From an uncultured Candidatus Saccharibacteria bacterium (lineage in GTDB: Bacteria; Patescibacteriota; Minisyncoccia; Phycocordibacterales; UBA9973): a stretch of DNA of 64,000 bases. Of the stretch, positions 7,244-59,601 are shown piece by piece. The notes under the pieces were generated by a model. It made no database searches and had not been told where the DNA came from. It saw only the letters and a list, made by a program, of their open reading frames with translations. The first letter of the stretch is position 1; each line of letters starts with the position of its first letter. The stretch lies in the NCBI GenBank assembly GCA_964554645.1, contig CAZKPK010000001.1, forward strand, positions 3,697 through 67,696, in the 5' to 3' direction. The position numbers and the translations under genes were made by a program.

Positions 7244-8383
7244 ATGGATAATCCGTTTAAAAAAATATTTTCCAGTATAAGAAATCTCACAAAAAGTGGA
7301 GAAGATAGCGCTGTTGGCATTGATATTGGTTCTTCCGCAATCAAGGTGGTTGAGATAAAAAGGAAAAGAGGCAAAGTGGTGCTTGAAACCTATGGAGCAA
7401 TAGCTCTTGGTTCCTATGACGCCCTTGATGTGGGGCGTGTCACCAATCTCTCGGTTGAAAAGATGGCGGAAGCTCTCAAGGAGGTCTTGAAGCAGTCCGG
7501 GATTACCACTACTTCAGGGGCTTTTTCTATTCCCATCCAATCAAGTTTAATTTTTGCCGTTGAACTTCCGGTTCAGGCTAAAGAAAGCGAGATAGCGACA
7601 ATTATTCCCACTGAAGCTCGCAAGTATATTCCGGTGCCAATTACGGAAGTTTCTCTTGATTATTTTATCTTGCCTCAAAAAGAACCTTCTTTTGAAGAGA
7701 TGAATGCAGTTGTTGATAATCCCGACATTCCGCAAAAGCCGACAGATAAAACAAGCGTGCTTGTGGTGGCGACGCAAAATGACGCAATTTCCAAATATCG
7801 TTCCATCGTTTCTCAATGCTCTCTCTCCGCCTCTTTTTTTGAAATTGAAATATTTTCTTCAATCAGGGCGAATTTTGAACACGAACTTTCTCCAGTGCTG
7901 TTGATGGATTTCGGCGCCTCCCGCACGAAACTCTCTTTGGTTGAGTTTGGAATGGTCAAAAGTTACCATACGATAGATAAAGGGGGAGCCGATATAACCG
8001 ACTCTATTTCCAAATCTTTAAGTATTCCTTTCAGTGAGGCGGAAAAAATGAAAAAAGAATTTGGTCTCTTTGAAAATCCGGTGGAAAAAAGTTTGTCGGA
8101 TATCATCAGAATCCATATTGATTATATTTTTTCTGAAGCCAATAATGTGCTGTTGGAGCATGAGAAAAGATACAATAAAACTATAAGCAAAGTGATATTT
8201 ACAGGCGGCGGATCTCTTTTGAAGGGGCTGAAAGAAGTGGCGGCAAATAATTTTCGAGCGGAAATAGAAATCGGCCATCCTTTCAGCAAGGTCAATGCTC
8301 CAGCCTTTTTGGAAAAAGTTTTGGAAACGATGGGTCCCGAATTCGCCGTCGCCTTGGGACTGGCGTTGCGAAAGTTGCAGTAA
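7244..8383 (+). CDS. pilM: type IV pilus assembly protein PilM (actin-like ATPase fold)
   Basis: GIDIGSSAIKVVE N-terminus, length and first position in the pil operon. Confidence 0.85.
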   Translation: MDNPFKKIFSSIRNLTKSGEDSAVGIDIGSSAIKVVEIKRKRGKVVLETYGAIALGSYDALDVGRVTNLSVEKMAEALKEVLKQSGITTTSGAFSIPIQSSLIFAVELPVQAKESEIATIIPTEARKYIPVPITEVSLDYFILPQKEPSFEEMNAVVDNPDIPQKPTDKTSVLVVATQNDAISKYRSIVSQCSLSASFFEIEIFSSIRANFEHELSPVLLMDFGASRTKLSLVEFGMVKSYHTIDKGGADITDSISKSLSIPFSEAEKMKKEFGLFENPVEKSLSDIIRIHIDYIFSEANNVLLEHEKRYNKTISKVIFTGGGSLLKGLKEVAANNFRAEIEIGHPFSKVNAPAFLEKVLETMGPEFAVALGLALRKLQ

Positions 8384-8390
8384 AAAATTA

Positions 8391-8437
8391 TCCACCCCGT
8401 CCTTTGATTACAAAGTCCACCCCTCAAGAGGGGAATC
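8391..8437. repeat. Family-A palindromic repeat unit (TCCACCCCGTC-ctttgattacaaag-TCCACCCCTCAAGAGGGGAAT)
   Basis: 47 nt identical to the copy at 16013-16061; contains the CCCCTC-AA-GAGGGG hairpin. Confidence 0.85.
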
Positions 8438-8444
8438 AGAAAAA

Positions 8445-8945
8445 ATGAAAGAAACTACCCCAAAAAAAGAAAAGTTTAAAGAAGTAATTGTTTCAGATGA
8501 AATTAGAAAATATCTTTCAGAAGCTACATGGCTGAAAGAGGGGGAAGATGTTAGACTCCCGGATTATATAAGACTCAAAACTGAAATAAGAGATATTTTA
8601 GTCCGAGTTGGAATTTGGTCGGATGAATTTTCTAAATGGCTAGATATGAATCTTGACGGTGTAAGTTTGCTGGGCAAACAAATTGAGGCAGTAGGCCAAT
8701 GGATGGAACGCAAAGATAATAAATATAGAAAAGAAAACTTAGAACATTACCGTGCTGGTGCAAAAACAAGCCTAGAATATTTGGAAGGCTGGTCTCCAGC
8801 ATTTGAAAAGTGGCTTCTTGATGGTTTGCCAGGAGATCTGCAAAAAGTTGGTGAAAACATGGATTATATAGGGAGAGTGTCTAGCACTATCGGAGCTATT
8901 AATATGGCAAAAAGATTGCTTAAGAAAAAAAAAGATCAAAAGTAA
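8445..8945 (+). CDS. hypothetical protein (166 aa) inside a repeat-bounded insertion between pilM and pilN
   Basis: ORF 8295..8945 trimmed to the first ATG after repeat A1. The upstream 50 codons are repeat-derived (..HPSRGE..). Confidence 0.5.
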   Translation: MKETTPKKEKFKEVIVSDEIRKYLSEATWLKEGEDVRLPDYIRLKTEIRDILVRVGIWSDEFSKWLDMNLDGVSLLGKQIEAVGQWMERKDNKYRKENLEHYRAGAKTSLEYLEGWSPAFEKWLLDGLPGDLQKVGENMDYIGRVSSTIGAINMAKRLLKKKKDQK

Positions 8946-9009
8946 ACTATATTTCAACATGAGGAAGCGATATAAACAGAAAAGTAATAATCTAGATTAA
9001 AATAACTAT

Positions 9010-9522
9010 ATGCGCAATAGGCAACCATCCACCCCGTCTCGACTAAAGTCGAGTCACCCCTCAAGAGGGGAACGTCCACCCCGACGCAAGCGTCACCCCT
9101 CAAGAGGGGAATGGAATCCAAAATCTCTATATCCATATTGGGAAATTCCTAAAAACAAAATTTTGACTGATAGGGCAAAAGATTTAAGAAAGGCGGGTAA
9201 TTTATCTGAAGTTATTTTTTGGCAAACTTTTAAAGATAAAAATAAATTAGGTTTTGATATTGATAGACAAGTTATAATCGGCAATTATATTGTAGATTTT
9301 TTTATTCCCGAACTAGGTTTAGTTTTTGAGATAGACGGTTCAAGTCATGACGATAAGCTTGAATATGATGCTGAACGAGATGCTTTTATGAGAGATTTAA
9401 ATTTAAAAGTGGTTAGAATTCTTGATATTGATGTGAAGAAGAATCTAGGAAGTGTCTATCAATTTGTATTAGAAACAATACATAAAAGAAAAAAGGATGC
9501 ATTTGAATTATTCCCCTCTTGA
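9010..9522 (+). CDS. DUF559 / Vsr-like (very-short-patch-repair endonuclease fold) domain protein
   Basis: C-terminal 110 aa match the DUF559 architecture (IVDFFIPELGLVFEIDGSSHDD...YDAERDAFMRDLNLKVVRI). N-terminal 35 aa are a translation of repeat A2 (HPSRGE x2). The stop codon TGA lies inside repeat A3. The true start may be an internal TTG near 9160. Confidence 0.7.
   Translation: MRNRQPSTPSRLKSSHPSRGERPPRRKRHPSRGEWNPKSLYPYWEIPKNKILTDRAKDLRKAGNLSEVIFWQTFKDKNKLGFDIDRQVIIGNYIVDFFIPELGLVFEIDGSSHDDKLEYDAERDAFMRDLNLKVVRILDIDVKKNLGSVYQFVLETIHKRKKDAFELFPS
9027..9117. repeat. Family-A palindromic repeat, two tandem units
   Basis: ATCCACCCCGTC-TCGACTAAAGTCGAG-TCACCCCTCAAGAGGGGAA followed by GTCCACCCCGAC-GCAAGC-GTCACCCCTCAAGAGGGGAAT. 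Confidence 0.85.
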
Positions 9523-9598
9523 GGGGTACTCCGACTTCAGTCGGAGTGGGGTGGATGTATGAGGGGTGACCCGATGACCATCGGGTCGGGGTGGATAG
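9511..9598. repeat. Family-A palindromic repeat, inverted orientation (TTCCCCTCTTGAGGGGT-ACTCCGACTTCAGTCGGAGT-GGGGTGGAT plus a degenerate second unit)
   Basis: reverse complement of the A consensus; supplies the stop codon of the DUF559 gene. Confidence 0.85.
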
Positions 9599-9665
9599 CT
9601 GTAGAACCAGAGTTATGCACATTATATTTCACTTAAGTTTGTTTTTGTAATATAATTAAGATACG

Positions 9666-10271
9666 ATGGAGCAGAGTTTCCAAACATCATTTATACCTAA
9701 AAAACCGATAGTGAAAGAACGCGCCATTCCGGCGCGACCTATTGGTATTTTTATCATCATTACTATTTTTGTTTTATTCACCGTGCTTTTGGCAACCGTC
9801 GCTCTTTATTTCTATAAAGGGATTTTGGCAAAGAACATTACGCAAATGGAGAATGACTTAAATCTGGCTAAAAATCGTTTTGAACCTTCTAAAATAACGG
9901 AGCTCCAGCTATTAGACAAGCGTCTGCGCGCATCAAGTGAAGTTCTGTCTCATCATATAGCTATCACGCCTGTCTTTCAAGCATTGCAAGCCATTACTAT
10001 GAAAACTGTCCGTTATACTAAGTTCAGTTATGATTTTGGGAATACGAAAGATGCGAAAGATACGAAAGTGATTATCAAATTAAGCGGCCAGGCAGTCGGT
10101 TATCGCTCGGTTGCTCTGCAATCTGATCTTTTTGCTAAAAATAAAAATTTAATTGATCCAGTTTTTTCCAACCTGGCGCTTGATGACAAAGGCAATGTCC
10201 TTTTTGATCTGGAATTTTCGGTCGATCCGTCTTTGGTTGATTATAAGCAAATGCTCTTAACCCAAAGTTAA
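9666..10271 (+). CDS. pilN: type IV pilus assembly protein PilN-like (bitopic membrane protein)
   Basis: single N-terminal TM helix after a short cytoplasmic segment, about 200 aa, operon position after pilM. Confidence 0.6.
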   Translation: MEQSFQTSFIPKKPIVKERAIPARPIGIFIIITIFVLFTVLLATVALYFYKGILAKNITQMENDLNLAKNRFEPSKITELQLLDKRLRASSEVLSHHIAITPVFQALQAITMKTVRYTKFSYDFGNTKDAKDTKVIIKLSGQAVGYRSVALQSDLFAKNKNLIDPVFSNLALDDKGNVLFDLEFSVDPSLVDYKQMLLTQS

Positions 10272-11402: not shown

Positions 11403-13151
11403 ATGAGTTTTTTAGAAGAACTAGCTAAAGAAGAGGTAATTAAAAAAAGCCAAATAGGCGAGATTAAAAACCGCGCGCAAGAGAAATTTGGAGGAGACAT
11501 AGATGAAGCCTTAATTGAATCCGGGATAACGGAGGAAAAAATTCTTGAAGTCAAAGGAAAATATCTGCAAATGCCGGTAAAGAAAGTGGCCAAGGATAAA
11601 TTGACTTTTGATGCTCTAAAATATATCTCGGAAGATTCAGCGACACACTATCATTTTGCTCCGATCGAGTTGCGAGAAGGAGTGCTAGAAGTGGGCGTTA
11701 CAAATCCGGAAAATATGCAAGCGATGAATGCGTTGCAATTTATCTCTGCCAAACTAGGCATTCCGTTCAAAGTGTATTTGATTTCTAAAAGTGATTACGA
11801 AAGCGTCATGGAGACTTATAAAGGCATAGGGAGCCAGGTGGAAGAAGCGCTCAGTGAGTTGGATCAAGAAGAGATAGCTAAAGCTGGAGGTCTGAGTGAA
11901 GAAAATTTAAGTAAAGAAATTAAGAATATAAAGCCGGGTGAAGAAACAAAAATAGTGGAAGATGCGCCAGTCATAAAAATCGTGGCGGTTATATTGCGTA
12001 ATGCCATAGAAGGCAATGCCTCCGATATCCATATTGAATACACTGGAGAAAAAGTGAAAGTGCGTTTTCGCGTGGATGGAAGTTTGCATACCACCATAGT
12101 GTTGCCTCCGAACATTTACGGCGGAATAATAGCACGTATAAAAATTTTGGCCAAGCTTCGACTGGACGAAAAAAGAAAACCTCAAGATGGATCGTTTAGC
12201 GCCAATATTGACGGACGCAAGGTTGATTTTCGCGTTTCTACCATGCCGGCGTATTATGGCGAGAAAGTTGCGATGCGTATTCTAGATTCCGAAAAAGGGG
12301 TCAAGCCTTTGGATCAATTGGGTTTATCAGAAACCAATCTCAAGATGATCCGAGAAGCGCTAAAATTGCCATACGGACTTATTTTAATCACTGGCCCAAC
12401 GGGATCAGGAAAATCTACGACCTTATATTCAATGATGAATGAACTCGATCGGGAAAAAAGCAATATTGTGTCTCTAGAAGATCCAGTGGAATATCATATG
12501 TCTGATATTAACCAATCGCAGATGATGCCGGAGATCGGATATACTTTCGCTTCCGGACTTCGTTCTATTCTCCGCCAGGACCCGGATATAATAATGGTTG
12601 GAGAAATTCGCGACAAAGAAACAGCCCAGCTGGCTATTCAAGCGGCTTTAACCGGGCACCTGGTTCTTTCTACGCTTCACACGAACAATGCTATTGGGGC
12701 AGTGCCTCGCCTGGTTGATATGGGGGTTGATCCGTATTTGATTGCGCCCACTCTTATTCTTTCCATTGCTCAACGTCTGGCCAGACTGACTTGCCCAAGT
12801 TCTCGAAAACTTATTCCGATGGACGAAAGCATTAAAATGCAGATCGAAGAGCAATTAAAAGATTTACCGAATGAATTTAAAAAAGAAATTGGAGTAAAGG
12901 GACAGATGTATGACACGGTTCCCTCGAACGAATGTCCTTCTGGCACCAGAGGGCGGATTGCTATTTTTGAAATGTTTAAAATAGACAAAGAAATGCAGAA
13001 TGTGATATTGAAAAGCCCGACGAATGGAGAAATCTACAGAGTCGCCCGCAAAAAAGGAATGCTAATGATGAAAGAAGATGCCATGCTTAAGTCCGTCAAA
13101 GGCATTATTCCTTTTACGGAAGTTTATAACTTTAGCAATGAGAATGAATAG
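11403..13151 (+). CDS. pilB: type IV pilus assembly ATPase PilB (GspE family)
   Basis: Walker A GPTGSGKST; Asp and His boxes; C-terminal Cys tetrad (CPSS...CPSG); N1/N2 domains. Confidence 0.92.
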   Translation: MSFLEELAKEEVIKKSQIGEIKNRAQEKFGGDIDEALIESGITEEKILEVKGKYLQMPVKKVAKDKLTFDALKYISEDSATHYHFAPIELREGVLEVGVTNPENMQAMNALQFISAKLGIPFKVYLISKSDYESVMETYKGIGSQVEEALSELDQEEIAKAGGLSEENLSKEIKNIKPGEETKIVEDAPVIKIVAVILRNAIEGNASDIHIEYTGEKVKVRFRVDGSLHTTIVLPPNIYGGIIARIKILAKLRLDEKRKPQDGSFSANIDGRKVDFRVSTMPAYYGEKVAMRILDSEKGVKPLDQLGLSETNLKMIREALKLPYGLILITGPTGSGKSTTLYSMMNELDREKSNIVSLEDPVEYHMSDINQSQMMPEIGYTFASGLRSILRQDPDIIMVGEIRDKETAQLAIQAALTGHLVLSTLHTNNAIGAVPRLVDMGVDPYLIAPTLILSIAQRLARLTCPSSRKLIPMDESIKMQIEEQLKDLPNEFKKEIGVKGQMYDTVPSNECPSGTRGRIAIFEMFKIDKEMQNVILKSPTNGEIYRVARKKGMLMMKEDAMLKSVKGIIPFTEVYNFSNENE

Positions 13152-13227
13152 ACGGAGTTGTTCACCAAGTGTTATTTGAAAGTAATTTGTAGTATAATTG
13201 ATTATTAGTTAATAGAGGTAAAAATAT

Positions 13228-13620
13228 ATGGAAAAAGAAAAAAGAAAAATTTTTATAGTTGATGACGATAGTTTTCTTCTAGATATGTATGCGCTTAAAT
13301 TTAGCCAAAATAATTTTGAAGTTTATACAGCAGTGAGCGGTGCGCAAGTAATAGAAAAGCTTCAGGGCGGACTCCGTCCGGATGTTATGCTGATAGATAT
13401 AATTATGCCGGAGATGGACGGTTTTGAGATGTTGGAAAAAATAAATGCCGACAAATTATCTCCGAATTCTGTCAAAATTATTTTGTCCAACAAAAGCCAA
13501 CAATCGGATATTGATCGAGGCAATAATTTGGGAGTAGCGGGCTATATTATAAAGGCTAATTCTACCCCAGTAGAAGTGATTAGTCAGATAACAAGCATTT
13601 TAGAGAAAAAAGCCAAGTAA
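13228..13620 (+). CDS. stand-alone response-regulator receiver (CheY/PilH-like REC domain)
   Basis: DDD acidic pocket, phospho-acceptor Asp in LIDIIMP, conserved Lys near C-terminus. Confidence 0.75.
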   Translation: MEKEKRKIFIVDDDSFLLDMYALKFSQNNFEVYTAVSGAQVIEKLQGGLRPDVMLIDIIMPEMDGFEMLEKINADKLSPNSVKIILSNKSQQSDIDRGNNLGVAGYIIKANSTPVEVISQITSILEKKAK

Positions 13621-15953: not shown

Positions 15954-15960
15954 GATTGAT

Positions 15961-16077
15961 TCTCCTCTTGAGGAGTACTCCGACTCAGGTCGGAGGGAGG
16001 TGGATGAGTTTTTCCACCCCGTCCTTTGATTACAAAGTCCACCCCTCAAGAGGGGAATCGCTACCCCTGTGGATAAC
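15961..16077. repeat. Family-A composite repeat (degenerate inverted unit plus forward unit identical to A1)
   Basis: TCTCCTCTTGAGGAGTACTCCGACTCAGGTCGGAGGGAGGTGGAT followed by TTCCACCCCGTCCTTTGATTACAAAGTCCACCCCTCAAGAGGGGAATCG. Confidence 0.85.
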
Positions 16078-29438: not shown

Positions 29439-31367
29439 ATGAAAATTTCTTATAATTGGCTCAAATGGTATATACCGGAAGCGCCTCCCGCAAACAAACT
29501 TGCGGATATTTTTAATTACCATATTTGCGAAGTGGAGAGTGTCCAACACCGAGTGTTGGACAAAGATAAAGATTGGATTTTTGATTTAAAAGTTTTGCCG
29601 AACCGCGCGCATGATTTACTTTCACATCAGGGAGTCGCTCGCGAGCTTGCTTCACTTTTAGATATCAAATATGTAGATCCCACGCCGAAATATAAAATTC
29701 CCGCCTCCGCCAAGGCTGCCCCCTTCGCTGAAGTGGCTACGAAGGCCAAGTCGGCGGGCAAGCCGGAATTAAAAATTGATGTTCAAACGCCTTTATGCAG
29801 GCGATATATGGGCAGAATTATAAGGGGAATAAAAATCGGTCCCAGTCCGGAGTGGATGGTGAAGCATTTAGAATCAATAGGACAGAGAAGTATAAATAAT
29901 ATTGTAGATGCCGCCAATATTGTAATGTTTGATTGCGGACAGCCGACTCATGCTTTTGATCTGGATAAAATGAATAGCAAGATAATAGTGCGCGAGGCAG
30001 AAAATGACGAAGACATAACCACTTTAGATAATCAGGGAATAAAATTAAAAAGTTCAAATATGGTGATTGTAGATTCTAAAAATATTTTAGCGATTGCCGG
30101 AATAAAAGGCGGGAAGATTGCGGAAGTGGACAATAATACAAAAAATATAATTCTTGAGGTTGCTAATTTTGATCCGGTTTCGGTGCGGAAAACAGCTCAA
30201 GCCTTTAATCTATTTACCGACGCGCGAAAGAGGTTTGAAAATGACCTGTCGCCAGAATTGGCACCATATGCCATGCGCGAACTCTCGGCTCTCATTTTTG
30301 AAATGTGTCCGGACGCTATTTTTGAAGATGTTGTGGATGTTTACCCCCACACCAATGATATTGGTGTGGGGGTTTATCCTGAAAAACAAAAGGAGAAAAA
30401 ACTTTCTTTTTCGGCTGAAAGAATTTCAAAAATTTTAGGACTCAAAGTTTCAGTTAAAGAAATAGAAAATATTTTGCAGAGATATAATTTTAGGTATAAA
30501 GAAAATAAAGGGAAATTTGAGGTTGTTGTGCCACCGATGCGTCTTGATTTAGCAATAGAAGAAGATATGGCGGAAGAGATAGGTAGAATTCTGGGATATG
30601 ATAAAGTAAAACCACAAATTCCCCACATGTCTGACATGTGGGAACCACAGGTTAATGAGATTTATGCAAAAATTTCCTGGGTCAGAAATAAATTATTGGC
30701 TGATGGATATTCCGAAGTGATGACTTATACTTTTCGAGAAAAGGGAGAAATAGAAGTGCAAAATAGCGCTTCCGATAAAAAGTTTTTGCGAACGAATTTA
30801 ACTGATGGATTGAAAGAAAGCGTTAAATTAAATCACGCCAATGCCCCGCTGTTAGGAATTGACGAAATTAAAGTTTTTGAAATTGGAACTGTTTTCAAAA
30901 AAGATAAAGAGCAGATAAATATTTGTTTTAGTGACAAAAAAAATATCACAGAAGTTTCTTTAAATGATTTTTGTAAAGATATGCTTTCTAGTGATTCTCC
31001 TCTTGAGGAGTACCCTTTAGGGGGAGGTGGAAAATTTATCCACCCCGTCGCAAGCGCCACCCCTCAAGAGGGGAATAGATTCAAGATGTGGTCTTTGTTT
31101 CCTTTCATTGCGCGCGATATCGCTGTCTTTGTGCCGGAAAAAATTAAGAGTTTGGAAATAGAAAAAATAATAAAAAAGAATATGGGAAATATGGTGATTC
31201 GAGGTCCGGAACTTTTTGATGAATTCAAAAAAGGCAATCAGATTTCTTATGCCTTCAGATTGGTTTTTCAATCTTACGATCGGACACTGACAGACGCAGA
31301 AGTGAATGAAATTATGGATAAAATAACTGACAAAATTAAGAAGAATAAAGGTTGGCAAGTAAGGTAA
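29439..31367 (+). CDS. pheT: phenylalanine--tRNA ligase beta subunit with in-frame Family-A repeat insertion
   Basis: B3/4, B5 and FDX-ACB-like domains. Residues ..SPLEEYPLGGGGKFIHPVASATPQEGN.. are encoded by the repeat at 30997-31078. Confidence 0.9.
   Translation: MKISYNWLKWYIPEAPPANKLADIFNYHICEVESVQHRVLDKDKDWIFDLKVLPNRAHDLLSHQGVARELASLLDIKYVDPTPKYKIPASAKAAPFAEVATKAKSAGKPELKIDVQTPLCRRYMGRIIRGIKIGPSPEWMVKHLESIGQRSINNIVDAANIVMFDCGQPTHAFDLDKMNSKIIVREAENDEDITTLDNQGIKLKSSNMVIVDSKNILAIAGIKGGKIAEVDNNTKNIILEVANFDPVSVRKTAQAFNLFTDARKRFENDLSPELAPYAMRELSALIFEMCPDAIFEDVVDVYPHTNDIGVGVYPEKQKEKKLSFSAERISKILGLKVSVKEIENILQRYNFRYKENKGKFEVVVPPMRLDLAIEEDMAEEIGRILGYDKVKPQIPHMSDMWEPQVNEIYAKISWVRNKLLADGYSEVMTYTFREKGEIEVQNSASDKKFLRTNLTDGLKESVKLNHANAPLLGIDEIKVFEIGTVFKKDKEQINICFSDKKNITEVSLNDFCKDMLSSDSPLEEYPLGGGGKFIHPVASATPQEGNRFKMWSLFPFIARDIAVFVPEKIKSLEIEKIIKKNMGNMVIRGPELFDEFKKGNQISYAFRLVFQSYDRTLTDAEVNEIMDKITDKIKKNKGWQVR
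30997..31078. repeat. Family-A composite repeat (degenerate inverted unit plus forward unit) inside pheT, in-frame
   Basis: CTCCTCTTGAGGAGTAC..GGAGGTGGA followed by ATCCACCCCGTCGCAAGCGCCACCCCTCAAGAGGGGAAT; same composite arrangement as 15961-16077. Confidence 0.85.
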
Positions 31368-33507: not shown

Positions 33508-34095
33508 ATGAAAAAATTAATCTTAGCTTCAAGTTCAAGCACAAGGAAAAATTTGCTTACAGAAGCCGGCTTGAATTTTGAAATTGATCCAAGTAGTTAC
33601 GAAGAAGATATAACATTATTAATGTCTCCAAAAGAATTAGTGGCTCATTTATCTTACGGTAAAGCAAAAGATGTAGCATCGAGGCACCAAGAAGCCATAG
33701 TTCTAGGAGCTGATACAATTATTGTCTATCAAGATAAAATTCTCGGTAAACCTCATACATCGGAAAGAGCTAAAGAAATGTTAAAAATGTTAAGTGGTAG
33801 GGCACACTTAGTTGTTACTGGTTTTACAATAATTGATACGAAAAATAATCATAGCATCTCCAAAGTTGTAGAAACAGAAGTGTTTTTCAAAAATCTCACA
33901 GATAGAGAAATAGATAATTATGTAGCTACCGGTGAACCACTGAATAAAGCAGGGGCTTATGCAATTTTAGAGAATGGTGGCAAATTTGTTAAAAAGATCG
34001 AAGGAAGTAGAACAAATGTGTCAGGTTTACCCATGGAGGAGTTAATGAATGTTCTAAAAAATTCCCATAGGTCAGACCTATGGGATGTGTTATAA
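33508..34095 (+). CDS. maf: Maf-like nucleoside-triphosphate pyrophosphatase; C-terminus encoded by a REP element
   Basis: KLILASSSSTRKNLL...GKP...; final residues ..NSHRSDLWDVL are a translation of REP copy B2. Confidence 0.85.
   Translation: MKKLILASSSSTRKNLLTEAGLNFEIDPSSYEEDITLLMSPKELVAHLSYGKAKDVASRHQEAIVLGADTIIVYQDKILGKPHTSERAKEMLKMLSGRAHLVVTGFTIIDTKNNHSISKVVETEVFFKNLTDREIDNYVATGEPLNKAGAYAILENGGKFVKKIEGSRTNVSGLPMEELMNVLKNSHRSDLWDVL
34063..34086. repeat. Family-B REP (TTCCCATAGGTCAGACCTATGGGATG)
   Basis: perfect palindrome; 5' flank of RAYT gene and 3' end of maf. Confidence 0.85.
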
Positions 34096-34102
34096 TAGCA
34101 GT

Positions 34103-34780
34103 ATGAGTCTCAGAGATTCGAATTTAGTGGAAAAAGAGTATTATCATATTTACAATCGCGGTAATGGAAAAAATAAAATTTTTAATTCCATAGAAGATTA
34201 CGATCGTTTTTGTAAACTTCTTTTTATTTGTAATTCTGAAAGAAGTTTTACATTCAGAGATTCAGTCGTAGATCAAAAAATTGATGCCTGGGATTTTGAA
34301 AGGGGAGAACCGCTTGTGGAAATATGTGCATGGGTTTTAATGCCTAATCATTTCCATATAATTTTAATTTCCCATAGGTCGGACCTATGGGATGAGAAGT
34401 ATAATCCAATAACGGAATTTATGAGAAAACTTTCTACGGCTTACGCTATGTATTTTAATAAGAAATATAACCGCACTGGATCTCTTTTTGAAGGAAAGTT
34501 TAAGTCTAAACATATTAGCAAAGATAATTATTTCCATTATTTATTTTCTTACATTCATCTTAATCCAATTAAATTAATCCAACCAGATTGGAAAGAAAAT
34601 GGTATCAAGAATAAAAAAGAAGCGATTGCTTATCTTATGAATTTTAAATATTCAAGTTTTCAAGATTTTTATGGTGTCTCTAGAAAAGAAGGAAAGATAA
34701 TAAATAAGAATTCGTTACCAGAAGATTTTAAATACAATCATGTTGAGGAACTTTTTGAATGGATAACTGATTCCCCATAG
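34103..34780 (+). CDS. REP-associated tyrosine transposase (RAYT; IS200/IS605-like Y1 HuH transposase)
   Basis: HIYNRG motif, HuH motif (PNHFHIIL), catalytic Tyr region (YIHLNP); flanked by, and interrupted in-frame by, Family-B REPs; stop codon TAG lies inside REP B4. Confidence 0.8.
   Translation: MSLRDSNLVEKEYYHIYNRGNGKNKIFNSIEDYDRFCKLLFICNSERSFTFRDSVVDQKIDAWDFERGEPLVEICAWVLMPNHFHIILISHRSDLWDEKYNPITEFMRKLSTAYAMYFNKKYNRTGSLFEGKFKSKHISKDNYFHYLFSYIHLNPIKLIQPDWKENGIKNKKEAIAYLMNFKYSSFQDFYGVSRKEGKIINKNSLPEDFKYNHVEELFEWITDSP
34369..34394. repeat. Family-B REP inserted in-frame inside the RAYT gene (encodes SHRSDLWD)
   Basis: TCCCATAGGTCGGACCTATGGGATG immediately after the HuH motif codons. Confidence 0.85.
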
Positions 34781-34799
34781 GTCAGACCTATGGGGAATC
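34769..34799. repeat. Family-B REP, extended perfect palindrome (GATTCCCCATAGGTC-a-GACCTATGGGGAATC)
   Basis: 15-bp arms; overlaps RAYT stop codon. Confidence 0.85.
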
Positions 34800-39948: not shown

Positions 39949-42117
39949 ATGCGACTCAAAACTCTTGAACTGAATGGCTTTAAATCTTTTTCTCAAAAAA
40001 CAGTTTTGGAGTTTGATAACAGTATTGTCTGCATTGTCGGTCCGAACGGTTCAGGAAAATCAAATGTAGTAGAAGCCATCCGTTTTGTCTTGGGCGAGCA
40101 ATCAATGAAATCAATGCGTGGCAAGACGGGCGTTGATCTCATTTTCAAAGGATCCAAAAATTTGCCTAGGAAAACGCGGGCGGCCGTTACAATATATTTC
40201 AATAACTCTGACAAAATTTTTAGGCTTGAGGATGGTGTAGGAGAAAACATGAATTTGAATTATGACACTATCAGCATAACGCGCCAGGTTTTCCCTGACG
40301 GACTCAATAAATATATTTTAAATGGGACAGAAGTGCGCCTGAAAGATATTCACCACCTTCTGGCCTCGGTTAACATAGGTTCTTCCGGGCATCATATTAT
40401 TTCCCAGGGCGAGGCTGATAGGATTCTGAATGCCAGCCCAAAAGATAGGAAGGAAATGGTGGAAGATGCGTTGGGGCTCAAAATTTACCAGTATAAAATA
40501 AAAGAATCTGAGAGAAAACTGGAAAGAACAGAGAACAATATGAAAGAAGTGACCATGTTGCGCAGAGAAAATGCTCCGCACCTTAATTTCTTAAAGAAAC
40601 AAGTAGAAAAATTTGAAAGGGCGAAAGAAATGCAGGCAGAGTTAGCAATTCTCTACCAAGAATATTTAAAAAAAGAAAACGTTTATTTAAATAAAGAGAA
40701 GGAAAATTTTCTCGCAGAAAGAAATAAAATAGCCAAAGAACTGGAAAGTGTTGTTAGTAAAATTTCTCTGACTGAAGACAGTGGTTCAGCTAAGGGAAAT
40801 CAAAAAATAGAGGAGCTAAGAACTATTGAGCAAAAATTAAATGAAATCCGCAGCGCCAAGGGAGAAATGAACAGAAAACTGGGAAGAATTGAAGGGATGA
40901 TAGAGGCCAAACAGAATAGAGTTAAAATTTCTGGCCGGTGTCCCATGTGTGGCAGAGAGTGGGGGGAAATGAGCAAAGAACAACTCGAAAACAGAGAAAA
41001 CAATCAGCAAGAATTAGCAGAATTGAAAAATTCTCAAGCTGGTATTCTAACGCAGGTGCAGGAAATGGAAAATAAAGAGAAAGAGCTTGTCGATCAGATA
41101 GAAGAATTGAAGCAGGAAATAAATAAACAGATGGAAACCTTGCGCGATTTGGAGCGGGAGAAGTTCAGCTTTAAGGTTAGGCATCAGGAATTGTCTTCAG
41201 CTTTGGAACTGGTGCGCATCAAAGAAACGAATTTAAAAGGCAGGCTTGAAGCCTTTGAAAGTGAGATCAAAGAAGGTGTAGCGCTTATAGGTCAAGAGAT
41301 TTTGTCCTATCCGCCCGAGGCGGACCAGCCTTGGGCTGGTAAAGAAATAGATGAAACAAGGCAAGCTGAGTTAAAGAAAAAAATTGAGCGTTTGAAAATA
41401 AAATTGGAAGATGCCGGTCTTGGCGGCGGAGCGGAAGTTTTGAAAGAATTCAAAGAAGTTTCGGAGAGGGATAATTTTTTAGCGAAAGAAATGGAAGATT
41501 TATCTAAAAGCATGGTGGCGTTGCAAAAGCTCATAGAAGATTTAAAGGAAAAGATAGACACAGAATTCAAGGAGGGTATCAAAAAAATAAACAAAGAATT
41601 TCAAGAATTTTTCTCCTTAATGTTTGGCGGGGGGACGGGATCTCTTGCGATAGTGGTGGAGAATAAAAAGAGACGAAGTATGAGCGAAGAAGAGGCTAAA
41701 TTCAGCGAAGCTGAATCGCCCGACGCTTCTGAAGAAGCGTTTAGGGAAGAGATTGTTTTTGAACAGGGCATAGAAATAAATGTTTCACTTCCTCATAAAA
41801 AGGTCAAAGAGCTTCAGGCGCTCTCGGGCGGGGAGCGATCACTCACTTCTATTGCTCTTCTCTTTGCGATGTCGCAAGTGAATCCTCCGCCATTTTTGGT
41901 GCTTGATGAAACCGATGCTGCGCTGGACGAAGCCAACTCGCGCAAATATGGAGATATGTTGGAAAAACTTTCCAAACATTCTCAGCTTATTGTTGTTACC
42001 CACAACCGCGAGACGATGTCCCGCGCCGGCGTGCTCTATGGCGTAACGATAGGCGGAAATGACACCTCCAAGCTTCTTTCTGTTAAATTCGAAGAAGCCA
42101 CCCAAATTGCGAAATAA
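39949..42117 (+). CDS. SMC-family ATPase, short form (722 aa) with CPxCG zinc-hook-like motif in place of a hinge
   Basis: SMC N-head (LELNGFKSF...IVGPNGSGKSNVVEAIRFVLGEQS..S.RG), SMC C-head (LSGGERSLTSIALLFAM..PPPFLVLDETDAALDEAN; VLYGVT), long coiled-coil heptads, central ISGRCPMCGREWGE. Confidence 0.8.
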   Translation: MRLKTLELNGFKSFSQKTVLEFDNSIVCIVGPNGSGKSNVVEAIRFVLGEQSMKSMRGKTGVDLIFKGSKNLPRKTRAAVTIYFNNSDKIFRLEDGVGENMNLNYDTISITRQVFPDGLNKYILNGTEVRLKDIHHLLASVNIGSSGHHIISQGEADRILNASPKDRKEMVEDALGLKIYQYKIKESERKLERTENNMKEVTMLRRENAPHLNFLKKQVEKFERAKEMQAELAILYQEYLKKENVYLNKEKENFLAERNKIAKELESVVSKISLTEDSGSAKGNQKIEELRTIEQKLNEIRSAKGEMNRKLGRIEGMIEAKQNRVKISGRCPMCGREWGEMSKEQLENRENNQQELAELKNSQAGILTQVQEMENKEKELVDQIEELKQEINKQMETLRDLEREKFSFKVRHQELSSALELVRIKETNLKGRLEAFESEIKEGVALIGQEILSYPPEADQPWAGKEIDETRQAELKKKIERLKIKLEDAGLGGGAEVLKEFKEVSERDNFLAKEMEDLSKSMVALQKLIEDLKEKIDTEFKEGIKKINKEFQEFFSLMFGGGTGSLAIVVENKKRRSMSEEEAKFSEAESPDASEEAFREEIVFEQGIEINVSLPHKKVKELQALSGGERSLTSIALLFAMSQVNPPPFLVLDETDAALDEANSRKYGDMLEKLSKHSQLIVVTHNRETMSRAGVLYGVTIGGNDTSKLLSVKFEEATQIAK

Positions 42118-55761: not shown

Positions 55762-57579
55762 ATGTCCTCATCAGTTGACCAAATTAAATCACGAATAGAC
55801 ATCCTCTCGCTTGTAAGCTCTTATATCAAGCTAGATAAGGCAGGAGCGAGTTGGAAAGCCAAATGTCCGTTTCATAATGAAAAAACACCCTCATTTTTTG
55901 TCTCGCCGGAACGGGGGAGTTATTATTGTTTTGGTTGCGAGGCTTCGGGAGACATTTTCACTTTTGTGGAAGAATTTGAAGGGTTGGATTTTAAGGGCGC
56001 TCTGAAACTTTTAGCAGATCGCGCAGGAGTGGTGCTTGAAGTTTACAGTCAGGAAAAGAAAGAAGTAGGTGAATTGATTTTTTTGGAGAAAGAAAAATTA
56101 TATCGAGTGATGGAAGAAACCACGAAGTTTTTTGAAAATAATTTTCCGCCCAAGGCGGATCAGCCTCGAGCTGAAAAGGAAATAAAAGAAGCATTAGAGT
56201 ATCTGAAATCGCGTGGTTTAACCGATAAAACTATCAAAGATTTTAGAATAGGTTATGCCATTCTTGATTGGCGAACACTTTATGATTACCTAAAGTCTAA
56301 GAATTTTTCTGATGAAGAAATAGAGCTTGCCGGATTGGCCAAGAAACCGGAAGACAAGACAAAAGCAATGTATGACCGCTTTCGCGGACGCATAATGTTC
56401 CCAATTTCCGATTCCAGTGGCCGGATTATTGCTTTTTCGGGAAGAATTCTGATTGATGATGGAAAATCGGCGAAGTATTTAAATAGTCCGGAAACCCCGA
56501 TATTTAATAAATCTTCCGTGCTTTTTGGCATAGATAAAGCAAAAGATTCCATCCGCAAAAATAACTTTTCCATTTTAGTTGAAGGGCAGATGGATTTAGT
56601 TTTATCGCATCAGGTCGGTTTTAAAAATACTGTTGCATCTTCTGGCACGGCGATGAATGATTCGATAATATCTAAAGAGAACATTATAAATAATTTAGGG
56701 CTTGTTTGCAGATTATCTAAAAATATCGTTCTGGCTTACGATGCTGACAAAGCGGGAGTGAATGCTTCCAATCGTTTTGCAAAAATCGCATTATCTTTAG
56801 GGATGGATGTGAAAGTGGCCAGTATGAGAGAGGGTGTCGATCCAGCCGATATTATCTCCAAAGAGGGTAAAGATGCGTGGCATCAAGCAATCCGAGATTC
56901 AAAACATTTTATTCCATTTATGCTAGAGCGAATCTTGAAAGATGCATCTGGTGATGGAAGAAAAGTGGGCAGAGGAATTCAAGAACGTCTTTTGCCTTTT
57001 CTGAAGGATTTAGACAGCGCGATGGAAAAATCCCATTTTATCAAACTTATTAGCGATAAATCCGGCATAGCTGAAAAAGCTCTAATGGAGGATTTGCAGA
57101 AAGTAGAGTCAGAATTGAAATATGAAACAGAAGAAATCAAAATCGCGAAAGAAAATGTGGACAAAAAATTGAGAAAAGATCCGATTGAACGCAGACTGCT
57201 GGGAATAGCTTTTTGGCAGGAAAGTGTTAAAAGTAAGATCGTAGATCCAGAAATCATTTTTGCGAAACTAGGTAAAGTGAAGGAATATTATAAAGACAAA
57301 AAAGAAGATTTAATTTTCGAAGCGGAAGCTTTTTATTCCAATAGCGAAAACTTACAAAAAGATGTGCGAGAGATGCTACTTTCGATTGAAGAAGAATATC
57401 TTAATGAGGAGCTTGTTAAGAAAATGATAGAACTTAAAAATCTGAAAGATGAAAAGGCTAAATCCAATGTAATTGGATCGCCCGACACTTCAGCAAAAGT
57501 GTTTAGGGACGAAGCAGAAATTTTAAAAAGAATAAATGAAATAAATAAGAGGAAAGAAGAAATTAAAAATAGTCGCTAA
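55762..57579 (+). CDS. dnaG: DNA primase
   Basis: CHC2 zinc finger ([30 protein letters not shown]), TOPRIM ([10 protein letters not shown]), DnaG core. Confidence 0.9.
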
Positions 57580-57583
57580 AAAA

Positions 57584-58762
57584 ATGAAAAAAAAGAAAAT
57601 AAAAAAAGTAAATAAGAAGAAAACTATCAAGAAAATAAAAAAGTCCCGACCGAAAGCGTCGGGAAAAAAAGTTGCGAAATTATCTTCTCTAGAAAAAAAA
57701 GCGGAAAATTTGACTCGTATTTCAGATGAGCTTATAGAAAAAGGGCGCAAAAGGGGATTTATTACTTATGATGAAATATTAAAAACTTTTCCTGATGTTG
57801 AAAATAATATTTTATTTCTCGACGAGCTTTATGAGAAATTTGCGATTGCCGGCATTGATGTGTTGGAGGGGGGGAATTTACTCAATCTTAATGTGGATTT
57901 AGCCGATAAAGATTTGGGAAAGTCTGGTATGTATGATTCGATCCAAATGTATCTGAAGGAAATAGGCCAATATCCGCTGATTCACGCGAGTGACGAAAAA
58001 GAACTTGCCAAACGCATTGAACATGGCGATGAAGAAGCAAAAAATCTGCTGGCTCGCGCAAACTTGCGTCTGGTGGTTTCCATTGCCAAAAAATATGTCG
58101 GAAGATCTGCCAATTTAACTCTTCTTGATCTGATTCAGGAAGGCAATTTAGGCCTATTCAAGGCAGTGGAAAAATTTGATTGGACTAAAGGATACAAATT
58201 TTCCACTTACGCGACTTGGTGGATTCGCCAGTCTATTACTCGCGCGTTGGCGGATCAATCCCGCACCATCCGCATACCGGTTCATATGGTGGAAACAATT
58301 TCCAAATATAAGCAAACGCACCGTCGGCTTTCTCAGGATTTGGGCCGGGAACCATTAGCCGAAGAAATTGCCACCGAAATGGGTATTCCAGTGGAAAAAA
58401 TTCACATAATTGAAAATATTAGCCAAGAAACTGTCTCTTTAGAACAGCCAGTCGGGGATGATGACGACAAATCAACTCTCGAAAATTTTATTCCGGATGA
58501 TAAAATCTTGCGCCCAGATCAAGAATCTTCACGCCGGATTCTTTCCGACCAAATTCGCGAAGTTTTAAGTGAACTCAATCCCAAAGAGCGTAAAATACTT
58601 GAAATGCGTTACGGACTTCTTGACGGCATCCAACACACTCTTGAACGGGTAGGAGAAGAATTTGGCGTGACGCGCGAGCGTATCCGCCAAATTGAAGCGA
58701 AAGTTCACGAAAAACTTCGCCAGCATGACAAAATTGCGAGGTTGAAAAACTATTTTGACTAG
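57584..58762 (+). CDS. rpoD: RNA polymerase primary sigma factor (sigma70)
   Basis: regions 1.2, 2 ([13 protein letters not shown]), 3 and 4.2 ([11 protein letters not shown]); directly downstream of dnaG as in the conserved MMS operon. Confidence 0.95.
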
Positions 58763-59542: not shown

Positions 59543-59587
59543 CGCGTTAAAATTCCCCTCTTGAGGGGTGGCTCGGTAATCCGAGAC
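59543..59587. repeat. Family-A palindromic repeat, inverted orientation
   Basis: TTCCCCTCTTGAGGGGTG-GCTCGGTAATCCGAGAC-GGGGTGGAT. Confidence 0.85.
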
Positions 59588-59601
59588 GGGGTGGATGTAT
59601 T

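Follow-up and report, generated by a model that had tools for sequence, protein, structure and literature searches.

Known systems that pair a palindromic repeat with an enzyme include REP/REPIN-RAYT, in which an inverted doublet with a short spacer, the REPIN, is the replicating form and the enzyme, RAYT, is an HUH/Y1 transposase. For many other bacterial palindromic repeat families we know of no mobilising enzyme. Conversely, DUF559 is among the larger bacterial families annotated as 'endonuclease domain-containing protein', and to our knowledge it has no accepted function. A Caulobacter DUF559 protein is reported to cause DNA damage in vivo, and a role in very-short-patch repair has been proposed for it (PMC12907096), and one paper equates DUF559 with the EDxHD family (PMC9403480). 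In the open-access literature, papers mentioning DUF559 describe no link to repeats, the core sequence of the repeat studied here appears in no paper, and nothing relevant was found on Vsr with MITEs, on palindromic repeats of Patescibacteria, on mosaic elements with an endonuclease or on REPIN/RAYT with an endonuclease.

Here we analyse such a pairing in a 64,000-nucleotide stretch of a Patescibacteria genome (the window), from a member of the candidate phyla radiation (CPR), where a repeat, family A, and a DUF559 gene look like an undescribed counterpart of REP/RAYT repeat-plus-enzyme systems. We put the probability that the units and the gene form a co-inherited selfish system of REPIN/RAYT type, with a Vsr-like nuclease as its enzyme, at roughly 0.68. 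A selfish system of this kind had been proposed in a sequence-only reading, and every comparative test run supports it.

Family-A units and the cassette in the pil operon

Read directly from its sequence, the window contains ten family-A units at the six loci named in the sequence-only reading (Table 1). Their form is (A)TCCACCCCG, variable hairpin, CACCCCTCAAGAGGGGAA, and the roughly 36-48 nt of the unit comprise three parts: a C-box (TCCACCCCG), a variable hairpin in which pairing is kept and sequence is free, and a second hairpin, CACCCCT-CAAG-AGGGG-AA, with a 5′ arm that repeats the C-box. Allowing up to three mismatches, we found nine copies of CACCCCTCAAGAGGGGAA in the window, where shuffled sequence predicts 0.02; for TCCACCCCG the count is 19 and the expectation 4.9. 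Across 204 distinct units there are 188 distinct variable sequences, and 151 units form a hairpin of at least 4 bp in this part, nearly all of the pairs being Watson-Crick. The T subtype shifts its C-box, arm and G-run together, from CCCC/CCCC/GGGG to CTCC/CTCC/GGAG. Many units carry CCCCGTC before the variable hairpin, and GCC, GGC, GAC and GCT are also found there. Unit 1 and the unit at 16010-16059 share 98% identity, and unit 3 and that at 31039-31082 share 91%.

Table 1. Coordinates of the repeat units and associated genes in the window
Feature	Position	Strand	Description
orf166, hypothetical protein, 166 aa	8445-8945	+	between direct units 1 and 2
DUF559 / Vsr-like PD-(D/E)XK endonuclease gene (170 aa)	9010-9522	+	Pfam PF04480
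Family-A unit 1	8390-8436	+	ATCCACCCCGTC, hairpin CTTTGATTACAAAG, TCCACCCCTCAAGAGGGGAAT; left outer end of composite
Family-A unit 2	9027-9072	+	inside DUF559 ORF, translation STPSRLKSSHPSRGE
Family-A unit 3	9075-9111	+	short hairpin GACGCAAGCGTC; translation PPRRKRHPSRGE
Family-A unit 4	9511-9556	-	inverted; gives DUF559 ORF its last codons and TGA stop (9520-9522)
Family-A unit 5	9560-9596	-	inverted, partial, without AAGAGGGGAA end; right outer end of composite
Dispersed inverted pair	15960-16006 with 16012-16057	- and +	between pilC and pilin gene
Dispersed inverted pair	30995-31033 with 31037-31075	- and +	in frame within pheT (ORF 29439-31367)
RAYT-like Y1 example with other repeat family	34064-34794		Y1-like gene at 34085-34780, flanked by other palindrome family
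Solo unit	59553-59596	-	adjoins 3′ end of dsbA-like gene

As single-stranded DNA, unit 1 gives two adjacent hairpins (z -2.7) and the inverted pair at 15960-16057 a cloverleaf (-30 kcal/mol, z -7.2). Wobble pairs in the hairpins have no strand bias (GT 7, TG 9), giving no sign of a strand-specific RNA structure. A known RNA was rejected as the identity of the units, Rfam covariance models giving no match at E≤1 over 8200-9800, and so was a terminator, the units having no T-tails and not being terminator-like in a terminator/promoter scan.

Within 8390-9596, five units bracket orf166 and the DUF559 gene with the outer units mutually inverted, as had been noted, and the resulting cassette splits a pilM / pilN-like / pilO operon, unit 1 lying directly 3′ of the pilM stop codon. 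Also as first read, the DUF559 ORF runs through the middle repeat and takes its TGA stop from the downstream one. The N-terminus of the protein, MRNRQPSTPSRLKSSHPSRGERPPRRKRHPSRGEW, is the translation of units 2 and 3, which is why HPSRGE occurs in it twice, and the final codons, TTC CCC TCT TGA, are supplied by the end of the inverted unit downstream. Units 2 and 4 lie in an inverted repeat with 47-nt arms (9026-9072 and 9511-9557) that are 81% complementary. Some 30 of 33 aligned homologues likewise start ..STPS..HPSRGE and finish ..FPS*.

The other gene of this cassette proved not to belong to the system. orf166 has no Pfam match and only four homologues, three of them in the same pilM-pilN cassette; the fourth (L180, 56% identity) lies at another location without units, and in other genomes the position of orf166 is taken by unrelated membrane ORFs of about 90 aa. 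We therefore rejected orf166 as a second component; it is variable cargo and no constant part of the system.

In the nuclease, Pfam PF04480 matches residues 52-157 (E 1.5e-21; 76.8 bits, cut-off 20.6 bits) and is the sole domain found in the ORF, Y1_Tnp giving no Pfam match there; the same profile also matches PDB 3HRL at 1.9e-12. D96, E107, D109 and H113 are invariant across 33 homologues. An AF2 model (pLDDT 80-95 over residues 50-167) predicts a folded domain at about 50-167 and disorder in the unit-encoded N-terminal 35 residues. Foldseek matched this model to 3HRL, I-Bth0305I (3R3P, probability 1.0), PvuRts1I/AbaSI (4OQ2/4PAR) and Vsr (1CW0, 1VSR), the nearest characterised structural relatives being the homing endonuclease I-Bth0305I, PvuRts1I/AbaSI and Vsr. 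The model and the alignment point to a Vsr-like fold with conserved acidic and His residues predicted to be catalytic.

A gene lying between inverted repeats could also be the target of a programmed inversion switch, with the inverted units as arms that flip it, and a genome-wide survey of predicted programmed-inversion targets does find 'DUF559 domain-containing protein' enriched, with an odds ratio of 14.3 (PMC9881135). However, no recombinase adjoins the gene in the window or at any inspected locus, and inversion between the arms would recreate the same ORF-unit fusions on the other strand and therefore change nothing. Since a switch would also leave the dispersed pairs and the insertion polymorphism described below unexplained, we regard it as very improbable.

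Gene-to-unit association across phyla

The selfish-system reading draws support from the company that the gene keeps. At all 48 loci that encode relatives of the window protein in reference genomes, units lie beside the gene (by a strict pattern at 42, as variants recognised by eye at 6). At least ten phyla are represented, the loci belonging to Paceibacteria, Gracilibacteria, Brocadiales, Fibrobacteria, Limisphaerales, Hyphomicrobiales, Ignavibacteria, Kapabacteria, Nitrospirota and Pedobacter. In the 19 kb of sequence lying no more than 200 nt from the gene we counted 92 units, and in 595 kb farther away 26, so that units are enriched 110-fold beside it; where units lie on both sides they are inverted at 28 of 32 loci. 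In most phyla the gene sits inside one inverted pair and the units stay outside its ORF, whereas in Paceibacteria, including the window, it sits between two pairs and the ends of the ORF are fused to units. Units face inward in one architecture and outward in its opposite, and one cleavage model does not fit both.

The design extends to distant homologues (30-37% identity) in cultured bacteria: all eight, from Deinococcus (2), Pseudanabaena, Synechocystis, Picosynechococcus, Sinorhizobium, Sphingobium and Sphingomonas, are flanked by inverted units of C-box plus hairpin with other sequence. The sequence of the unit shifts along with the protein lineage and the flanking design is kept. The case that the sequence-only reading had set against its own proposal, related genomes with the identical DUF559 gene and no flanking repeats, was not encountered among the 48 relatives. 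As to its other adverse case, a repeat unassociated with DUF559, only 8 of 120 metagenome loci with the core motif adjoin a DUF559 gene (about 7%) and some 93% of copies are non-adjacent, whereas from gene to repeat the association is universal at the 48 loci. That test was mis-specified, because most REPs likewise do not adjoin a RAYT gene; the informative direction is from gene to repeat.

The settings of the gene are diverse, with at least three kinds of intergenic site in Paceibacteria and, elsewhere, positions beside hsdS, RHS and DUF1156 methylase genes and in the sufB-sufC gap, where the Sphingomonas module interrupts the operon. Proteins of CPR bacteria and Brocadiales are 62-66% identical, from which we infer horizontal transfer. 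Phage carriage was rejected: the core has one exact match among 2.9 million viral contigs, and phage records hold one weak protein match.

We weighed whether the units are instead REP- or MITE-like repeats moved by another enzyme, a Y1/RAYT or insertion-sequence transposase, with DUF559 as a passenger or as a preferred landing site around which they accumulate. The roughly 93% of core-motif loci without DUF559 nearby would fit, as would the RAYT-like Y1 proteins encoded in CPR genomes including the window and the unlikelihood of a nuclease alone being a transposase; moreover, CGTC-tagged REPs exist, and the CGTC before the variable hairpin of many units resembles them. Yet when ORFs within 400 nt of units were clustered across the 120 metagenome loci, DUF559 and the adjacent hsdS were the only real recurrent family, and no transposase-like family recurred. 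A passenger, further, would not keep its flanking design over at least ten phyla and at protein identities as low as 30%, nor does that role account for a unit sequence that changes with the protein lineage. The RAYT-like gene of the window was rejected as mobiliser of family A because the palindrome that flanks it, and that it also carries, is a different one, CCCATAGGTCnGACCTATGGG, with homologues elsewhere having palindromes of their own. On this evidence we consider another mobilising enzyme unlikely. The RAYT-like gene also serves as an internal control for the pairing of family A with DUF559.

Constraint, polymorphic sites and dispersed pairs

Constraint on the repeat is visible in its DNA. 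Among the 13 close (group-1) genes amenable to codon alignment, the third base does not vary in any of the 12 codons of the unit core, compared with 7% of codons in the gene body. The nuclease is under purifying selection (gene body dN/dS 0.10, dS about 1.3). In most close homologues the units leave the ORF open, so that the similarity might be thought to reside in protein-level repeats, functional HPSRGE motifs, rather than in a DNA element. The invariance of synonymous sites in the 18-mer core refutes this, as do copies of unit DNA on both strands, in non-coding DNA and in other frames (TPQEGN and SPLEEY in PheT); the predicted disorder of the unit-encoded N-terminus and the position of units outside the ORF in other phyla count against it too, and we give it practically no credence.

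In related Paceibacteria the module occupies three different intergenic sites, each of them unoccupied in other relatives. At the pilM-pilN site the window, L006, L007 and L009 have the module and L012 lacks it; between pilB and a response-regulator gene it is present in L012 and L017 and missing from the window (13151-13228), L006 and L007; and after the homologue of window gene 57584-58762 it is present in L003, L004, L008, L011 and L133 and missing from L067. At the locus of the solo unit of the window, related genomes carry the whole DUF559 module. Neither a target-site duplication nor sharply defined element ends were seen in the three occupied/empty comparisons and the flanks of 46 pairs, the sites being too diverged (70-85% identity) for base-level junctions; the flanks of the 46 pairs show a preference for A|...|T and AT-rich sequence. 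L035/L046, the only intragenomic duplicate that aligned cleanly, was rejected as a clean transposition because the shared RHS sequence extends beyond the units. In L033/L048 similarity stops inside the units, which is compatible with transposition and not decisive.

Away from the gene, the element usually comes as a pair. The single unit had been taken as the element; among 319 units in 1.48 Mb of locus sequence, 46 of 61 adjacent unit pairs are -/+ doublets, and an inverted pair of 80-115 bp, with terminal inverted repeats TTCYCCTCTTGAGGRG ... CCCCTCAAGAGGGGAA, is the commonest dispersed form. The pair at 15960-16057, which is the analogue of a REPIN, combines a T-subtype unit on the minus strand with a G-subtype unit on the plus strand, TTCTCC...GGGGAA ends outward, and L007 has a unit pair at the syntenic position. 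The pheT pair lies in the linker ahead of the FDX-ACB domain; homologues with a short linker have no pair there, whereas in P0135 the position is taken by a different pair. The pair of the window is in frame in a continuous ORF, and pairs can therefore arrive without the gene. L049 and L050, which retain a 5′-truncated DUF559 gene between units, are decay intermediates.

Some of these observations could be accommodated by a domesticated host nuclease, for example a Vsr-type mismatch nickase or a hairpin/cruciform processor, whose flanking units are operator/autoregulatory sites or GC-rich mRNA stabilisers and whose dispersed copies are serviced sites. Strong purifying selection (dN/dS 0.10) and the long retention of orthologous positions would suit such a nuclease, as would the repair role proposed for the Caulobacter protein (PMC12907096) and the argument of one paper that RAYTs are domesticated (PMC8266576). 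Presence or absence of the module at three loci among close relatives speaks against it, and so do the interruption of operons (pilM-pilN in the window, sufB-sufC in Sphingomonas), pairs within coding sequences such as pheT, the horizontal transfer suggested by 62-66% identity between CPR bacteria and Brocadiales, units that are not terminator-like and have no T-tails, and the neighbourhood of the window gene (pilM, orf166 and a pilN-like gene), which contains no cytosine-5 methyltransferase. We judge a domesticated host nuclease improbable. One point does count against the selfish-system reading: the window and L007 share insertion positions at 80% DNA identity. Such orthologous insertions are old and stable, so the system may be partly domesticated or have very little activity.

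Proposed mechanism and comparison with known systems

In the mechanism that we propose, the Vsr-like nuclease would recognise the conserved module of C-box and terminal hairpin, probably when extruded or single-stranded, and nick or cut at unit ends; host replication and repair would then copy the unit-bounded DNA. The gene would be copied by homing-like gene conversion between unit-bearing sites, and pairs would be copied to new AT-rich sites. What disperses through the genome, also in frame into genes, is the inverted pair. A hydrolytic PD-(D/E)XK nuclease alone is incapable of strand transfer, and for that reason the copying step is without precedent and is left here to unspecified host functions.

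If correct, the partnership would assign a testable role to DUF559 and give the long-lived intragenomic replicators of REPIN/RAYT type a second class of enzyme, in which a hydrolytic Vsr-like nuclease stands in place of an HUH transposase. It would also account for peptides of the HPSRGE and PLEGCPKGGV types that extend ORFs through mis-annotation, and for the in-frame insertions that essential genes carry in the streamlined genomes of CPR bacteria, and a nuclease with a structured recognition element of 18 nt or longer could serve as a reagent. More tentatively, and at somewhat less than even odds, much or all of the very large DUF559 family, across Bacteria, could be the trans-acting nuclease of an unrecognised class of small mobile palindromic elements, each built as a C-box with a C-run/G-run hairpin. 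Their autonomous copies would be only about 0.5 kb long and spread by the nuclease only, through structure-specific nicking followed by copying by host repair or replication, and their non-autonomous pairs would explain repeat families that lack a known mobilising enzyme, for example in rhizobia, Deinococcus, cyanobacteria and CPR bacteria. Homologous modules are carried by cultured hosts (Pedobacter miscanthi, Sinorhizobium meliloti, Deinococcus proteolyticus, Sphingomonas and Picosynechococcus), so the hypothesis is open to direct bench testing.

Several known systems share parts of this design. An integron-cassette (attC) reading was rejected because the units are inverted and the neighbourhood gene lists contain no integrase. 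The Vsr repair endonuclease has the superfamily and fold in common with the DUF559 protein (1CW0 and 1VSR being among its matches), but belongs to PF03852 rather than PF04480, and the gene described here has no adjacent cytosine-5 methyltransferase and a repeat-flanked mobile context unlike that of a repair gene. EDxHD homing endonucleases such as I-Bth0305I share the predicted catalytic fold and, as proposed here, the strategy of a nuclease-only selfish gene that depends on host repair; they reside in introns or inteins or target one gene, whereas the DUF559 gene lies at intergenic sites of various kinds, enclosed by multicopy palindromes of its own that also disperse without it.

MITEs resemble the 80-115 bp pairs in their terminal inverted repeats (TTCCCCTCTTGAGGGG...), and the pairs look like internal-deletion derivatives of the gene-bearing form as an autonomous parent, with L049 and L050 as intermediates; the parent of a MITE, however, encodes a transposase (DDE, serine/tyrosine recombinase or HUH), whereas DUF559 is the only constant gene here and no target-site duplication is visible at the diverged sites. 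Rickettsia palindromic elements, for which we know of no enzyme partner, share in-frame residence in essential genes.

The closest likeness is to REP/REPIN-RAYT. The RAYT enzyme is replaced by a Vsr-like PD-(D/E)XK hydrolytic nuclease, the unit is composite (C-box, variable hairpin and conserved hairpin) and often fused to the ORF, and pairs also lie in frame within genes. At the hairpin foot, where REPs have a conserved GTAG or CGTC, many family-A units have CGTC and others a different sequence. REPs have no target-site duplication, and here none was visible at sites too diverged for base-level junctions. Common to both are short, GC-rich palindromes scattered mainly over intergenic DNA, a putative replicating form of two inverted repeats separated by a short spacer (here the -/+ pair), one small enzyme gene with inverted flanking repeats, and a repeat family that matches the lineage of its own gene.

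Family-A units and their insertion sites

The 18-nt core of family A (≤3 mismatches) occurs nine times in the window against 0.02 expected, and the six loci described in the sequence-only reading are all present, resolving on inspection into ten units of one common design; each point of that description is right. The design is (A)TCCACCCCG, then a sequence-variable hairpin, then (C)CACCCC-TCAAGA-GGGG-AA(T). Five units fall between pilM and a pilN-like gene. There, as had been proposed, an ORF that is DUF559 by Pfam (E 1.5e-21) runs through repeat units and takes its TGA stop from the downstream inverted unit. The NCBI entry identical to this protein is named Candidatus Nomurabacteria (CPR/Paceibacteria lineage).

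Positions of family-A units, modules and other repeats (window positions unless a locus handle, L, for another genome or plasmid is given; U, unit)
Feature	Position	Strand	Context
pilM	7244-8383
Unit 1		+	Between pilM and orf166
DUF559 ORF	9010-9522
Units 2 and 3		+	Within 5′ end of DUF559 ORF
Units 4 and 5		-	Unit 4 gives DUF559 ORF its last codons and TGA stop
AT-rich segment	9597-9665		Region between last unit and pilN, with ~50 nt AT-rich segment
TTCACT-17-TATAAT	9628-9656		Promoter-like
pilN-like gene	9666-10271
Inverted pair	15960-16057		After pilC
Inverted pair	30995-31075		In frame within pheT
Solo unit	59553-59596		Beside dsbA-like gene
pilM-pilN site			Occupied: window, L006, L007, L009; empty: L012 (stop codon, 22 nt, start codon)
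pilB-response regulator site			Occupied: L012, L017 (U+, small ORF, U+, DUF559, U-); empty: window (13151-13228), L006, L007
Site after homologue of gene 57584-58762			Occupied: L003, L004, L008, L011, L133; empty: L067
RAYT-like ORF	34085-34780		231 aa
CCCATAGGTCnGACCTATGGG	34064, 34774		Flanking RAYT-like ORF
CCCATAGGTCnGACCTATGGG	34371		In frame in RAYT-like ORF
CCCATAGGTCnGACCTATGGG	14689, 14713, 30618		30618 inside pheT
Family D1	16134, 18406, 41310, 45343, 56145		TCCGCC..GGCGGA-TCCGCC..GGCGGA
Family D3	21354, 21764, 21783, 53551, 53576		CTTGGCGGTTTAACCGCCAAG
75-nt direct repeat	41676-41750, 57438-57512		Inside ORFs 39949-42117 and 55762-57579
Deinococcus aetherius			Inverted arms 35 nt
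D. proteolyticus			Arms 56 nt, 95% complementary
Pseudanabaena galeata pPg_02	L173 418-3351		Nested arms 55 and 44 nt, inside annotated 1621-aa CDS
Synechocystis and Picosynechococcus plasmids			Both adjoin DUF1156 methylase genes
S. meliloti pSymB			Arms 114 nt, 96% complementary
Sphingobium			Arms 46 nt
Sphingomonas parapaucimobilis plasmid	L185 377-787		Arms 33 nt, gene wedged between sufB and sufC

When unit flanks were compared between loci by BLAST, the module (DUF559 gene plus flanking units) proved to occupy, in related Paceibacteria, three distinct intergenic positions, each of them empty in other relatives; at the third, the window retains a solo unit only. No target-site duplication is visible in these occupied/empty comparisons, the sites having diverged to 70-85% identity. 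The AT-rich segment before pilN, ~50 nt of extra sequence containing a promoter-like motif, is common to genomes with the pilM-pilN insertion and missing from the empty site in L012 (4020-4042), and the downstream operon may gain a promoter that is carried in, or newly formed, by the inserted DNA.

The two-gene cassette bracketed by repeats stands as an arrangement, but orf166, its 166-aa hypothetical gene, is ruled out as a system component and is cargo, because the small companion ORF differs between genomes: the window and three close relatives have orf166, and L007, L012 and L017 have unrelated membrane ORFs of ~90 aa.

The linker that holds the pheT pair is hypervariable: homologues with a short linker have no such pair, and the PheT homologue P0135 carries another one at this position. 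Window pheT is one continuous 642-aa ORF, which the stop codons of a full module would have broken, and pairs must therefore be capable of inserting on their own, with no gene between them. Across Paceibacteria this linker, before FDX-ACB (window 30990-31080; homologues P0121-P0240), is a hot spot of in-frame palindromic insertions, many homologues carrying a different element, translated ..AFALGDIGQGTHDALN... Separately, one Ignavibacteria MAG holds two module copies (L035 2900-3620, L046 790-1510) that are 93% identical; since the duplication reaches into flanking RHS-core-like sequence (..YANNNPISFKDPTGL..), it is probably RHS paralogy, not transposition.

Association of units and DUF559 genes across phyla

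A protein search with the window DUF559 gave 522 homologues, the closest of which (70-88% identity) are all from Parcubacteria. About 30 of 33 aligned homologues start ..STPS-x-HPSRGE and finish ..LKFPS-stop, both being translated units. When the alignment was used to scan GTDB, with each species represented by one genome, it yielded 48 loci, in Paceibacteria, Gracilibacteria, Brocadiales, Fibrobacteria, Limisphaerales, Hyphomicrobiales, Ignavibacteria, Kapabacteria, Nitrospirota and a cultured Pedobacter. The 18-mer (≤3 mismatches) is present at 43, and a strict whole-unit pattern places units beside the gene at 42, the other six having unit variants that visual inspection recognises, such as those with a TCAAAGA or TCAACGA loop. 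Unit density ≤200 nt from the gene is 110-fold that of the remaining 595 kb of flanks. At 32 loci the gene has units to its left and right, and at 28 of these the gene-proximal units are inverted. Units accompany the DUF559 gene generally, and other DUF559 genes are indeed flanked by the repeat, an association that is essentially complete from the gene side.

Two module architectures are equally numerous among the loci. In the window and its CPR relatives (group 1), the order is U+ gene U-, with GGGGAA ends toward the gene and the ORF fused to the units; in most other phyla (group 2) it is U- gene U+, with TTCCCC...GGGGAA ends outward and the gene a separate ORF just inside. Modules lie repeatedly beside or between restriction-modification genes (L021-L027 from Brocadiaceae/Kuenenia; L029, L030, L172, L184), and in anammox bacteria between two hsdS-like frames, with the DUF559 frame open back into the upstream hsdS.

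Homologues at 30-37% identity were recovered by tblastn against plasmids of cultured bacteria. In all eight that were inspected, inverted units flank the gene; they share the design, a CACCCC-like C-box and then a C-run/loop/G-run hairpin, but differ in sequence. In Sphingomonas, gene and inverted units interrupt the conserved suf operon. The Pseudanabaena CDS is labelled 'DUF559 domain-containing protein' because the frame is open through hairpin units on both sides of DUF559; this reflects either misannotation or a real insertion in frame.

From the repeat side, scanning metagenome contigs for exact core matches gave at least 120 loci. Among the matches listed, DUF559 lies ≤300 nt away in only 8 of 120, and it adjoins 8 of the 114 units that have ≥700 nt of sequence on each side; most family-A copies are dispersed, as for REPs. 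The expected positional association thus holds for genes but not for most repeats (~93% of the matches listed have no DUF559 nearby). Many copies with few beside the gene had been named as a refutation; this is mis-specified as a test, because ~7% adjacency among the matches listed is orders of magnitude above chance and nearly every gene has its units.

An inverted -/+ pair of 78-116 bp is the dominant dispersed form (46 of 61 adjacent pairs) and has the architecture of a group-2 module without the gene; 34 of the 46 combine one G-subtype and one T-subtype unit (CCACCTCC...TACTCCTCAAGAGGAGAA). Two Nitrospirota loci (L049 6455-6767, L050 7964-8257), in which a 5′-truncated DUF559 keeps only its C-terminal half (residues ~95-163) between intact inverted units, are plausible decay intermediates toward such pairs.

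Conservation of the unit and of the nuclease

For the 13 group-1 genes that allowed codon alignment, the gene body has a median dN/dS of 0.10 at dS ~1.3, and the protein is therefore functional and old. In the same genes, third positions are invariant in 12 of 12 codons overlapping unit cores, but in only 7% of codons in the gene body, so that conservation of the core acts on the nucleotides themselves. The variable part, by contrast, takes 188 different sequences among 319 units and forms a hairpin of ≥4 bp in 151 of 204 distinct units, with nearly all pairs Watson-Crick and no G-T strand bias among those 204. In the T subtype, C-box, 5′ arm and G-run shift jointly (CCCC/CCCC/GGGG to CTCC/CTCC/GGAG), a sign of covariation that is suggestive, not statistical, because the subtype may be a single lineage. 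Folding, which the sequence-only reading had called for, predicts two adjacent hairpins for a single-stranded DNA unit and a cloverleaf for a pair (z -6 to -7).

The AF2 model of the protein is confident at residues 50-167, with the unit-encoded first 35 residues disordered. The structures that it matches best are 3HRL (a functionally uncharacterised DUF559 protein), the homing endonuclease I-Bth0305I, PvuRts1I/AbaSI, R2 retrotransposon endonuclease domains and Vsr, and D96, E107, D109 and H113 are invariant in the 33 aligned homologues. DUF559 has been equated with EDxHD homing endonucleases (PMC9403480), and a Caulobacter DUF559 protein damages DNA in vivo (PMC12907096).

Enzyme partners and comparison with REPIN/RAYT

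Clustering all ORFs ≤400 nt from units at the metagenome loci listed (at least 120) yielded three recurrent groups, namely DUF559 together with the hsdS beside it, its antisense frame, and repeats in translation, and no other recurrent enzyme family. The window also encodes a RAYT-like Y1 protein, found via a neighbour of an orf166 homologue, with a weak Pfam Y1_Tnp match and an HUH-like motif, NHFH. A palindrome differing from family A, CCCATAGGTCnGACCTATGGG, flanks its gene and recurs in frame directly after that motif; its homologues in L180, L080 and L078 have different palindromes of their own at their flanks. This REP/RAYT-type pair (34064-34794) serves as an internal control, each of the two repeat families having its own flanked enzyme gene in one genome; that of family A is DUF559. 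Two further palindromic families, the double hairpin D1 and D3, have several copies inside long ORFs and no associated gene seen within the window, and a direct repeat with small hairpins (75% identity) lies inside two different long ORFs.

Open-access papers mentioning DUF559 yielded no link to repeats, and the family-A core was found in none of the open-access papers searched. A programmed-inversion survey reports, without comment, an enrichment of 'DUF559 domain-containing protein' (odds ratio 14.3; PMC9881135) among genes that have inverted repeats; the units flanking DUF559 genes explain it. Inverted units acting as an inversion switch, an unknown mobiliser moving units with DUF559 as passenger, and a host nuclease that has been domesticated and whose repeats are operator-like all fit less well with a gene and repeat that co-vary across phyla, with the insertion polymorphism and, among the metagenome matches listed, with the lack of any other recurrent neighbour. 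The earlier hypothesis is supported, and the best-supported reading is that family A and DUF559 form a selfish repeat-plus-nuclease system that would work like REPIN/RAYT. In the mechanism we favour, the Vsr-like nuclease would nick structure-specifically at unit ends, and host repair or replication would then copy the unit. Such a system is not a member of the REPIN/RAYT family, because the HUH transposase that defines that family is absent here.
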